Shown in pieces: positions 14,431-16,492 of a stretch of 64,000 bases of DNA. The translations under genes were made by a program, and so were the position numbers. Each line of letters opens with the position of its first letter. Position 1 is the stretch's first letter. The stretch is from a virus (Duplodnaviria; Heunggongvirae; Uroviricota; Caudoviricetes): IMG/VR virus record IMGVR_UViG_2721755662_000004; one strand, 5' to 3'. The notes under the pieces were generated by a model. It saw only the letters and a list, made by a program, of their open reading frames with translations, was not told the origin of the DNA and did not search any database.

Positions 14431-14645
14431 GGTAAAAACGGTTTGCGGTAAAGCGAGAGTTAAGTAGAATTGCTGCGGGTGCTTGAGGCTGTCTGCCTCG
14501 GGCATGCCACCGTAAGGCAGACAGAGAAAAACCCCAGTTAACATTACGCGTCCTGCAAGACGCCTAACATTAATCTGAGGCCAATTTCATGCTAGACACA
14601 TGTAGGTTAGCCTCTTACGCGCCGAAAGGCAAGGAGAAGCAGGCT

Positions 14646-14801
14646 ATGAAGCAGCAAAAGGCGATGTTAGTCGCCCTGATCGTCATCTGTATTACCGTCG
14701 TAGTGACGGCACTGGTAACGAGGAAAGACCTATGCGAGGTACGAATCCGAACCGGTCAGACGGAGGTTGCTGTCTTCACAGCTTACGAACCTGAGGAGTA
14801 A
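14646..14801 (+). CDS. hok: Hok/Gef-family type I toxin
   Basis: 51 aa MKQQKAMLVALIVICITVVVTALVTRKDLCEVRIRTGQTEVAVFTAYEPEE, near-identical to chromosomal HokD/RelF as I recall it; in-frame upstream extension from 14589 is mok-like. Confidence 0.85.
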   Translation: MKQQKAMLVALIVICITVVVTALVTRKDLCEVRIRTGQTEVAVFTAYEPEE

Positions 14802-14871
14802 GAGACCCGGCGAGGGAGAAATCCCTCGCCACCTCTGATGTGTCAGGCATCCTCAACGCACCCGCACTTAA

Positions 14872-14891
14872 CCCGCTTCGGCGGGTTTTTT
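14872..14891 (+). terminator. Intrinsic terminator at the 3' end of the hok transcript
   Basis: CCCGC-TTCG-GCGGG followed by TTTTTT. Confidence 0.75.
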
Positions 14892-15010
14892 CACTTACTG
14901 TGGTTGTGAATACGATTGGTATTAGGCTATGCTAACAACATTAGCCTGACTAATTTTGTATTGACTTGATTTTTGTTAAAGAACAGGACGGAGAAGTAAG
15001 GGTACACCCA

Positions 15011-15190
15011 ATGAGCTACGCACTAAAAAAACACCCGCGATTGACTATTCCCCCTCGCGATAAAAGCGTTGTGGCAGCTCCGCGCCCGGCTATCGATGAA
15101 AATTGCACTCATCGTGAGCAGGTGAAAAATGCTTTCGATTTCGGTTTTTCTCGTTACGAGAAGGCAATGGAAGAACTTTCAAAAGTGTAA
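15011..15190 (+). CDS. Putative antitoxin partner of the Doc-like toxin
   Basis: 59-aa ORF ending 18 nt before the Doc-like gene; assignment by position only, no Phd-like motif seen. Confidence 0.35.
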   Translation: MSYALKKHPRLTIPPRDKSVVAAPRPAIDENCTHREQVKNAFDFGFSRYEKAMEELSKV

Positions 15191-15208
15191 TGATGGGTAT
15201 TGTGCTCT

Positions 15209-15694
15209 ATGGCTGAGATTGTTGAAGGAGTGCACTACCTTTCGTTTGATGATCTTACCGAAATTAATCGCCTTTTAATTGAGCTTCAAACACCAGATGA
15301 ACCTGTTAGTGTGCTGAGTGTTGATAATTTAAGTTCTTCTCAGTCTCGTCCCAGCATGGTTCGATGGTATGAACAGACTAATGACATGTTTGTACTGGCA
15401 TCAGTATTGATTGAAAGTCTGATTCAGAATCATCCATTTGCTAATGCAAACAAACGAACAGCTATGATGGCTGGTTATGTCTTCTTGTTGTTGAATGGCT
15501 ATGAGTTAACAGCACCAGGCGATGAAATCGTGGAAATGGCAGAGGGACTGGCCTGCAAAACCTATACTCGAGAAGATCTCGAGAACTGGTTGTGTTATTG
15601 GTCTCGTGCGTATGACAGCCGGGAATTATGTAAAACAGGCGCAACTATTGTTTTGTATGAAACTATCAAGCTTAAAATAGAACAGCAAAACTAA
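15209..15694 (+). CDS. doc: Fic/Doc-family toxin (Doc-like)
   Basis: Motif HPFANANKRTAMMAG fits the Doc/Fic signature HxFx(D/N)(A/G)NKR (P1 Doc has HIFNDANKR). Confidence 0.7.
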   Translation: MAEIVEGVHYLSFDDLTEINRLLIELQTPDEPVSVLSVDNLSSSQSRPSMVRWYEQTNDMFVLASVLIESLIQNHPFANANKRTAMMAGYVFLLLNGYELTAPGDEIVEMAEGLACKTYTREDLENWLCYWSRAYDSRELCKTGATIVLYETIKLKIEQQN

Positions 15695-15708
15695 AGGTGC
15701 TTCTAATG

Positions 15709-15734
15709 AAAACCCGCTTCGGCGGGTTTTGTTG
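15709..15734. terminator. Intrinsic terminator between convergent doc and higA-like genes
   Basis: A-run, CCCGC-TTCG-GCGGG, T-run. Confidence 0.7.
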
Positions 15735-15744
15735 TATTGGAGTA

Positions 15745-16062
15745 TCATGATATTACCTGGATTCCGTTTTTCTCTACGACTGAAAGAAGGCGAAGAGCGG
15801 CACCTCCCGGCCGTTTTACACCACGTTCCCAGTCTGATATCAGGTTTTTACTGACGTTGAGGTATCTGGCAAAAACAGGTTGAGACAGATGCTCTCGTTC
15901 GCGCAGTGCACGGATCCTTTCCGGAGACATTACCGGCGCTGGCTGGAGACAAGTTTCATCGAATTCTCGCATAGTCTGTTTCGTTACTGCGCCGATATCA
16001 TGAAGCGATTCCATCATTTCATGTACGGATGCAAGCGCATCACTGCGGTAATTTTTACTCAT
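15745..16062 (-). CDS. higA: HigA-like XRE-family HTH antitoxin
   Basis: 105 aa; C-terminal HTH (LSQPVFARYLNVSKNLISDWERG); strong SD; start overlaps the stop of the upstream RelE/ParE-like frame. Confidence 0.7.
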   Translation of the reverse strand: MSKNYRSDALASVHEMMESLHDIGAVTKQTMREFDETCLQPAPVMSPERIRALREREHLSQPVFARYLNVSKNLISDWERGVKRPGGAALRLLSVVEKNGIQVIS

Positions 16063-16425
16063 TGGGTACCTCCGTAAACTGACCCTGTAGAATCAGTTGT
16101 GCCAGTTGTTCATCTGTTAGATTGAGTACGTGAGGAGCCGCCTTCCGAAATGCACTTTCCGCAGTAGCGGTTATATTTTCACGTTCATTTTTTGCGTATG
16201 CATATACGAAAAAGGCCCTTGTGCCGACGCGATAGAAAATGATTGTGCGATAACCGCCAGATTTGCCGCCACCGACTCGTGGCAGACGTTGCTTGATAAC
16301 GCCGTTACCCAGGTTTGCTGAGATAAGCCCGTTATCAGCCTGTTTAACAATTTCGCGCAGTGATTGGTCGGATATTTTGTTTTGCGTGCAAATCGCTCAA
16401 ACCAGGCGTTTTTAAAAATGCGCAT
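16055..16425 (-). pseudogene. higB: RelE/ParE-superfamily (HigB-like) toxin disrupted by a frameshift
   Basis: ATG at 16425 gives MRIFKNAWFERFARK in one frame; the conserved body (...LGNGVIKQRLPRVGGGKSGGYRTIIFYRVGTRAFFVYAYAKNERENIT...) is in the -1 frame with no start codon; the shift lies in an A-rich tract near 16376-16381. Confidence 0.7.
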
Positions 16426-16492
16426 TTTTTGTTCCGTTATTAATGTATAACACATAGTGTTACATTGCGTAGGGATCTGCAATGCCATCAGT

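Follow-up and report, generated by a model that had tools for sequence, protein, structure and literature searches.

Why do three toxin-antitoxin (TA) cassettes lie next to one another in a single prophage, and what could they still do there? We ask this of a stretch of 64,000 nucleotides (nt) from the IMG/VR virus record IMGVR_UViG_2721755662_000004 (Caudoviricetes), which we refer to as a whole as the window. It belongs to a lambdoid E. coli prophage in which three TA cassettes are adjacent at 14477-16470: a type I hok/mok/sok module, a Doc-family toxin with a partner of 59 amino acids (aa), and a HigBA2-like module. Two of them appear undamaged; in the third the toxin is dead. The segment 14400-16520 is 100% identical to the FORC_069 chromosome and to four other assemblies, and the O104:H4 outbreak strains match it at 99.6-99.7% identity. 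The answer that we favor, and consider likely, is that the junction between the replication genes and the nin region is a cargo hot spot which holds three independent, self-contained TA cassettes, and that the two live modules serve mainly the selfish stabilization of the prophage. In what follows we establish the family identity of each gene, its intactness or damage, the boundaries of the cassettes, the conservation of the Doc partner and the variability of the locus; the coordinates of the features are collected in Table 1.

Condition of the three modules

A preliminary description of this locus had recognized three TA modules lying back to back at 14589-16430. Matches in Pfam, Rfam, NCBIfam and PDB place all three modules where that description had put them, and only the beginning of the span has to be moved, since the hok mRNA and also the sok gene start before it, at about 14477. 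The first module had been called a hok/mok-type type I toxin with a 3' terminator, and each element of this can be recovered: Hok matches the Pfam family HOK_GEF (PF01848) with E=1.4e-23 over profile positions 1-42 of 42, the mok open reading frame (ORF) falls into PHROG 251 ('MokW-like host killing', 5e-32), the Rfam family sok (RF01794, gathering score 59) is matched from end to end by 14477-14651, at 110 bits, and a terminator scan finds a hairpin at 14870-14887. When the sok region is aligned with three other hok loci, one of which is the annotated hokW/sokW of phage 933W, the mean column identity is 94%. In the minimum free energy (MFE) fold of 14477-14893 the segment 14477-14488 is paired with 14851-14863, which is the tac-fbi closure of the two mRNA ends (z=-7.04 against shuffles). 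All of the sequence features that define a hok/sok locus are thus present; the identical hok sequence in FORC_069 carries the RefSeq name hokD. By analogy with such loci, the stable hok mRNA would be kept closed by the pairing of its 5' and 3' ends while the short-lived Sok antisense RNA would block translation of mok and thereby of hok; when the supply of Sok stops, Hok would be made and the membrane would collapse. Sub-threshold Rfam matches to isrK, rsmX and istR (14804-14891 and 15643-15733) turned out to be the two terminator hairpins of the locus and not small RNA genes.

The second module had been described as a Doc-family toxin with an upstream small ORF, and this too is correct. The toxin scores 122 bits against the NCBIfam model TIGR01550 ('death-on-curing family toxin', cut-off 38.65) and matches Pfam Fic at 2.9e-11, while a profile built from 29 Doc homologues and compared with PDB matches Doc structures only (E. 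faecalis 9VZC at 2e-19, P1 Doc at 3.7e-7). Its active-site motif, HPFANANKR, occupies residues 75-83, and H75, F77, N79, N81, K82 and R83 are invariant in the 29 homologues. Within the Fic fold an NKR signature marks the kinase (Doc) type and GNGR the AMPylase type. The motif is given as HXFX(D/N)(A/G)NKR in the paper describing 9VZC (PMC13034048), and because this allows D or N, the N at motif position 5 is an accepted variant. We therefore have here what is predicted to be a 161-aa Doc-type Fic kinase that would phosphorylate EF-Tu and so stop translation. Its relatives among phages are few, amounting to 7 records of a 50,697-record collection, with up to 59% identity.

The third module is the damaged one. 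Its antitoxin is HigA-like, as had been proposed: it matches Pfam HTH_3 (1e-7), a helix-turn-helix (HTH) family, its closest solved structures are those of V. cholerae HigA-2 (E=8e-8, residues 45-99 aligned), and the protein, WP_000042397.1, is identical in all inspected genomes that carry the full trio of modules. The accompanying toxin had been called decayed, which is right in effect and overstated in degree. Three-frame translation finds the PF06296 toxin frame divided between two reading frames, and alignment with the intact 372-nt genes of strain 2013C-3033 (92.5% identical in this region) and of O157:H7, in both of which higB is whole, reduces the damage to the loss of one nucleotide from an A5 run at codon 16, now a T4 run on the plus strand at 16380-16383. 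With a single A restored, the frame matches PF06296 in full, at 154 bits over positions 1-120 of 120, whereas the longest in-frame remnant covers positions 15-120 only and stays open for 112 codons 3' of the frameshift. The order is toxin first, and the toxin frame, ending at 16055, overlaps the start of higA at 16062 by 8 nt.

The identical deletion is found in each of the trio genomes inspected (FORC_069, ML35, a pig isolate, O104:H4 and AST198) and in phage PhiR12_3; O104:H4 and AST198 have a second deletion in higB besides the shared one. Because many independent assemblies share it with a phage genome, we reject sequencing error as its source and take the deletion as real and inherited. 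We reject programmed frameshifting as well, since the remaining A4 run, as read from the sequence, forms no slippery heptamer. The RefSeq annotation (Prokaryotic Genome Annotation Pipeline) gives 16055-16393 on the minus strand as a 112-aa RelE/ParE toxin with an ATT start and no pseudogene flag; for O104:H4 the annotation gives a 68-aa piece instead. With its non-canonical start and without PF06296 positions 1-14, we treat the 112-aa coding sequence (CDS) as a remnant and not as a true gene. It follows from the frameshift in the window, in the other trio genomes inspected and in PhiR12_3 that the third module cannot kill: a ribosome-dependent RNase toxin of the HigBA2 type appears to have been lost to a single nucleotide, which would leave an orphan HigA2-like repressor behind.

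Is this orphan itself of use? It could be a functional product, either an anti-addiction factor against the HigB2-type toxins of other prophages or a stand-alone transcription regulator. The ribosome-binding site, the frame and the upstream palindrome, a candidate HigA operator in the higBA promoter region, have all been kept despite the dead toxin, and the protein does not vary among the trio genomes; targets for cross-neutralization also exist in the species, because intact paralogous higBA2 operons (about 84% DNA identity) occur in O157:H7-type prophages. However, a toxin frame that is still open for 112 codons past the lesion means that the inactivation may be recent, which would explain the conservation of higA equally well. 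HigA may thus have been kept as a regulator or as protection, or may equally be a recent leftover, and we regard a function of its own as improbable.

The small partner of Doc

The unclassified component is the 59-aa protein encoded upstream of doc. It has no relative in Pfam, NCBIfam or PDB, and its PHROG, 2208, is of unknown function. The ratio of nonsynonymous to synonymous substitution rates (dN/dS) is nonetheless 0.05-0.10 between divergent copies, with synonymous sites saturated, which amounts to strong purifying selection. Almost no variation is seen in its last 23 residues, QVKNAFDFGFSRYEKAMEELSKV. The AlphaFold 2 (AF2) model leaves residues 1-33 without regular structure and forms one helix at 34-57, a block with a predicted local distance difference test (pLDDT) score of 84-93, and this helix is the nearly invariant part.

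Its association with Doc is strict. At all 17 of the 17 loci outside E. coli a homologue of 56-62 aa lies 3-18 nt upstream of the Doc homologue; these loci come from Salmonella (two contexts), Ewingella, Providencia, Serratia (two), Pantoea, Kluyvera, Citrobacter, Hafnia, Rosenbergiella, Yersinia pestis, Xenorhabdus (two), an Orbaceae genome and one further contig. In the annotated E. coli loci (n=5) the gene is likewise upstream of doc, with a gap of 18 nt. The neighborhoods are wholly different from one another: myovirus baseplate genes, siphovirus tail genes, Bro-N or pRha antirepressor-type neighbors, or the interval between topA and sodC. This last case is a Providencia chromosome (CP028384.1, positions 2818-3489 of the extracted stretch), where the pair sits between topA and the Cu/Zn superoxide dismutase gene; none of the three neighboring genes shown is a phage gene. 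As far as comparative sequence data go, the 59-aa protein is the product of a real gene and the fixed partner of Doc.

What kind of partner it might be is suggested by what it lacks and by a precedent. An exhaustive hidden Markov model (HMM) search of 1.84 billion representatives returned 39 clusters only; almost all consist of stand-alone proteins 47-66 aa long, and a longer Phd/YefM-type protein is not among them. In Pfam, NCBIfam, PDB and the AF2 model we find no Phd/YefM or AbrB-like N-terminal DNA-binding domain, and the class I Fic inhibitory motif (S/T)xxxE(G/N), sought by reading the sequence, is absent. A 22-residue C-terminal peptide of Phd alone neutralizes the Doc of Salmonella (PMC9207808), and because such a peptide suffices there, a protein of little more than one helix is a plausible antitoxin. 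We infer that the 59-aa protein neutralizes Doc through its helix and without a DNA-binding domain: it is predicted to keep Doc inactive by laying its conserved C-terminal amphipathic helix into the groove of Doc, as the C-terminal helix of Phd does. Literature searches on TA modules of lambdoid phages and the nin region, on TA modules of O104 prophages, on Doc of Y. pestis and on the RefSeq accessions returned no paper on the island or on this Doc partner.

An alternative is that the pair is not a TA module at all, and that Doc is a phage host-takeover enzyme which modifies a host protein in lytic growth with the small protein as its cofactor or specificity subunit. The PHROGs category of the Doc family ('moron, auxiliary metabolic gene and host takeover'), the presence of the pair in late (tail) operons of several phages and the unlikeness of the partner to any known antitoxin would all agree with this. 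We nevertheless judge it very improbable, as a small gene in first position, a spacing of 3-18 nt and strict co-inheritance are the classic layout of a type II TA operon, as the structural relatives of Doc are Doc toxins only, and as the Providencia locus described above has the pair between topA and sodC.

Cassette junctions and varying cargo

How did the Doc pair come to lie between the other two modules? The preliminary description held that the last two modules share a bidirectional terminator; this hairpin is indeed present, at 15709-15730, and contains in addition a second copy of the 20-nt sequence of the hok terminator. The two copies of AACCCGCTTCGGCGGGTTTT, at 14870-14889 and 15711-15730, are 100% identical and 841 nt apart. 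An otherwise collinear O157:H7 prophage provides the empty site: there BLAST aligns 14427-14889 and 15711-16464 of the window as contiguous sequence with a 20-nt overlap, so that a single hairpin is common to hok and an intact higBA and the 841 bp with the Doc pair are absent. The Doc cassette of the Ewingella phage context ends in a very similar hairpin, and therefore the hairpin travels with the cassette. The step between the simpler hok-higBA layout and that of the window would then have been one event with its junction in the terminator hairpin, which is now present twice. An insertion here would leave the same products as a deletion in O157:H7 through recombination between the repeats, and for this reason the two look the same. 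Within the cassette, upstream alignment brings out a conserved ATTAGRCTA block at about 14925-14934, which may be a -10 element.

To place the cluster among its relatives we surveyed 5426 complete E. coli genomes and the 50,697-record phage collection. The hok part is matched in 4714 of these genomes and the higBA part in 217; the Doc cassette occurs in 125, always on the chromosome, and the full trio in 34, including O104:H4 outbreak strains. No phage of the collection carries the full trio. At the equivalent position of related prophages we find hok with higBA, higBA alone, hok with doc, doc alone and, in Salmonella, hok with doc, parDE and vapBC. Because independent prophages repeatedly carry other TA combinations at this position, the clustering is not due to chance, and because the combinations vary, we conclude that this is a site which accepts TA cargo and not a single co-evolved system. 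The Salmonella enterica case (contig DAAWNC010000008.1, positions 3496-6009 of the extracted stretch) packs four TA-type modules into about 2.5 kb, with hok on the opposite strand, followed by 59-aa/Doc, ParDE and VapBC.

These data bear directly on a reading in which the cassettes have no role for host or prophage, being selfish TA elements that accumulate at a permissive recombination site and then decay. A frameshifted higB with a second deletion in O104:H4, the existence of every presence/absence combination of the three cassettes and the rarity of the trio (34/5426) are what one would expect from it. On the other hand, hok, the 59-aa gene and doc are undamaged and subject to purifying selection, the HigA of the carriers inspected is 100% conserved, and the 59-aa/Doc pair has been held together across many genera of Enterobacterales, and we therefore find it rather unlikely that the cluster is wholly without a role. 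A more ambitious proposal joins three elements: that the 59-aa protein founds a class of minimal Doc antitoxins, which would consist of a disordered N-terminal half and one neutralizing helix with no DNA-binding domain; that the pair is a widespread abortive-infection phage moron of Enterobacterales; and that the terminator hairpins at the replication/nin junction are crossover points for the swapping of cassettes between lambdoid prophages. Taken as a whole, we hold this proposal to be unlikely.

The setting is that of a lambdoid prophage. In FORC_069 the prophage is inserted inside ynfG, and its annotation runs from the integrase through exo/bet/gam, the repressor region, the replication genes, DUF1627, DUF977 and DUF551 to the TA cluster, followed by ant, ninB, ninE, more ant, rusA, ninH and Q; Pfam matches to DUF551, ORF6N and NinB surround the cluster. 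Since it lies between the replication module and ninB, the earlier label 'nin region' is a fair one.

Several features of the surroundings deserve mention in their own right. Two units resembling the immI of P1 flank ninB/ninE at 16516-17433 and 18101-19035, each with matches to isrK, a c4-a1b1 target and C4 antisense RNA that all exceed the Rfam gathering scores, and each ending in an ORF6N/Ant antirepressor gene, at 16768-17433 in the first unit and at 18352-19035 in the second; ahead of the first lies a near-consensus sigma-70 promoter (TTGACA-18-TATATT, 16493-16522). At the left border of the hok module, 14409-14430 is a perfect 22-bp palindrome, CGATATGGGAATTCCCATATCG, which may bind a protein or mark the boundary of a module and is found in the same place in the O157:H7 locus. 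Just 5' of hok are two tiny hydrophobic ORFs, 14177-14260 (27 aa) and 14296-14400 (34 aa; in RefSeq the hypothetical protein WP_001278450.1), neither with a family match in NCBIfam or PHROG searches. Farther downstream, at about 20668-23800, the RefSeq annotation has the Q antiterminator, a 765-bp gap and then an esterase of the SASA family (nanS-p-like), a layout that we take to resemble Stx-phage architecture; the RefSeq annotation of the prophage contains no stx gene, and there is no tRNA gene anywhere in the window.

Table 1. Coordinates in the window of the features of the three cassettes, with the basis of each assignment.
Feature	Position	Strand	Basis
-10-like TAGAAT ahead of hok mRNA (putative)	14465-14470		read from sequence
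Full-length hok mRNA	14477-14892	+	Rfam sok/hok leader match, MFE fold, terminator scan
5' tac element of hok mRNA	14477-14488	+	5' end sequence GGGUGCUUGAGG
Sok antisense RNA (predicted, approximate coordinates)	14527-14597	-	transferred from annotated sokW of 933W
mok frame, 70 aa, overlaps hok	14589-14801	+	ORF list; layout as mokW of 933W
Sok promoter (predicted): -35 TTGCCT, 17-nt spacer, -10 TAACCT	14632-14627 (-35), 14609-14604 (-10)	-	read from sequence
hok toxin gene, 51 aa	14646-14801	+	in frame within mok ORF
3' fbi element of hok mRNA	14851-14863	+	
Direct repeat copy 1, AACCCGCTTCGGCGGGTTTT; hok terminator hairpin, left junction of Doc cassette	14870-14889	+	repeat search, BLAST junctions
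Doc cassette, 841 bp	14890-15730	+	absent from otherwise collinear O157:H7 prophage locus
59-aa partner gene, putative antitoxin	15011-15190	+	synteny, selection, AF2 model
Doc-family toxin gene, 161 aa, Fic fold	15209-15694	+	TIGR01550
Hairpin AAAACCCGCTTCGGCGGGTTTT; predicted bidirectional terminator of convergent doc and higA; holds repeat copy 2 (15711-15730)	15709-15730		terminator scan
HigA2-like antitoxin/HTH regulator gene, 105 aa, intact, own GGAGG ribosome-binding site	15745-16062	-	Pfam, PDB
HigB2-like (PF06296) toxin pseudogene	16055-16425	-	alignment with intact 372-nt genes; three-frame translation
Imperfect palindrome AATGTATAACAC-ATA-GTGTTACATT upstream of toxin pseudogene	16442-16466		read from sequence

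Possible role of the cluster and its known relatives

What, then, might two live modules do for the prophage? The toxicity, neutralization and biological role that we ascribe to them are inferred from sequence, and the scheme that we favor runs as follows. On loss of the prophage, or when transcription stops, Sok and the 59-aa protein would vanish, after which Hok would damage the membrane and Doc would arrest translation. Post-segregational killing of this kind by the two live modules would stabilize the prophage, and a possible side benefit would be abortive infection in cells whose transcription is shut off by an invading phage. The preliminary description had suggested an addiction or phage-exclusion island. 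It was right about the three families, and the varying TA cargo at this position in related prophages speaks for an island; the third module has to be struck from the list of killers, its toxin being frameshifted. For the cluster so reduced, a role in addiction or phage exclusion would be plausible.

A stronger version would make the cluster an active abortive-infection island, selected because it protects the lysogen: when an invader shuts off the host, Sok and the 59-aa protein would decay, and the invader would not mature before Hok and Doc had killed or arrested the cell. Two modules are intact, each with its own regulatory elements and terminator, the locus is a swap site for TA cargo as defense hot spots are, the Doc pair is also found as a moron within tail and baseplate modules of unrelated prophages, and the hok/sok system of plasmid R1 reportedly excludes T4. 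Against a dedicated defense role stand the absence of a convincing defense-system match for any module protein in PADLOC-DB 2.0 (Doc reaches only E=0.002 to the candidate family PDC-S23, HigA has only generic HTH matches, and Hok, the 59-aa protein and the toxin remnant have none), a toxin that is dead in all carriers inspected, the existence of every subset of the cassettes, and the lack of the whole trio in any phage of the collection. We consider such dedicated defense doubtful.

The reading that we prefer, a cargo hot spot with two live modules that stabilize the prophage, has to be weighed against several points of its own. The loss of higB in the trio genomes inspected shows that at least one module has not been maintained by selection. 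PDB and profile searches detect no similarity of the 59-aa protein to any known antitoxin, and its putative antitoxin role is drawn from synteny and analogy. Motif position 5 of the Doc subfamily is N where P1 Doc has D, and kinase activity of the subfamily is assumed by analogy; the AF2 model of Doc alone is poor (pLDDT 50.6), and we made no use of it. Finally, no promoter of the Doc cassette passed a consensus scan.

All three toxin families are known and had already been named by RefSeq in identical genomes, so the finding itself is correct and fairly ordinary. Modestly new are the unclassified family of 59-aa Doc partners, the duplicated terminator junction, the exact lesion of higB and the combinatorial nature of the locus. 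The practical value is likewise modest: a clean map of one TA hot spot, which lies in a prophage that the O104:H4 outbreak lineage also carries, a correction to RefSeq, in which the 'RelE/ParE toxin' CDS is a frameshifted remnant, and a conserved, unclassified partner family identified for a subfamily of Doc toxins. If the 59-aa protein is a true antitoxin, it would be a very small natural inhibitor of Doc, which is relevant to peptide inhibitors of Salmonella Doc. The combinations of hok, doc and higBA at one locus, moreover, form a natural series for asking whether such modules stabilize prophages or exclude phages.

Each cassette can be set beside a known system. The third follows the HigBA2 system of Vibrio cholerae (PDB 5JAA, 5J9I), and likewise the PF06296/HTH pairs that other E. 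coli prophages carry, with the same toxin-first order, overlapping stop and start codons and an antitoxin of about 105 aa built from an N-terminal segment and a C-terminal HTH; it differs from the Vibrio system in that its toxin is a frameshift pseudogene, and the sequence similarity to HigB-2 is weak (E=5e-3). The second resembles the Phd-Doc pairs of phage P1 (PDB 3K33) and E. faecalis (PDB 9VZC) in three respects: the toxin has a Doc-type Fic fold and an NKR motif of the kinase type, a small gene directly precedes that of the toxin, and the partner is predicted to have a C-terminal helix. Its Doc is longer, at 161 aa against 126 in P1 and 139 in E. faecalis, motif position 5 is always N in its subfamily, unlike in P1 Doc, and the partner, at 59 aa, has neither a Phd/YefM or AbrB-like domain nor sequence similarity to Phd.

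Another parallel, for an antitoxin of this size, is the PaaR2-PaaA2-ParE2 module of O157:H7 prophages, a prophage type II system in which the antitoxin has about 60 aa and no DNA-binding domain. PaaA2 is largely disordered apart from its helices, and the module has a separate regulator gene. The likeness to the pair in the window lies in the small antitoxin without a DNA-binding domain; the toxin differs, being ParE there and Doc here, and no separate regulator gene is evident beside the Doc cassette.

Like hokW/mokW/sokW of the Stx phage 933W and hok/sok of plasmid R1, the first cassette has overlapping mok and hok frames, an antisense Sok region, tac/fbi pairing of the mRNA ends and a 51-aa Hok/Gef protein, and the 933W locus shares about 91% DNA identity with it over 441 nt. 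The 3' ends differ, in that the mRNA in the window ends in the AACCCGCTTCGGCGGGTTTT hairpin, which 933W does not have, and the protein is named HokD in RefSeq. A further relative is relBE-hokD in the Qin prophage of E. coli K-12, where a type II TA operon adjoins a hokD-type gene in a lambdoid prophage much as it does here. To our knowledge the hokD of K-12 lacks functional mok/sok control. In the window the type II families are other than RelBE, and the regulatory region of hok is complete.

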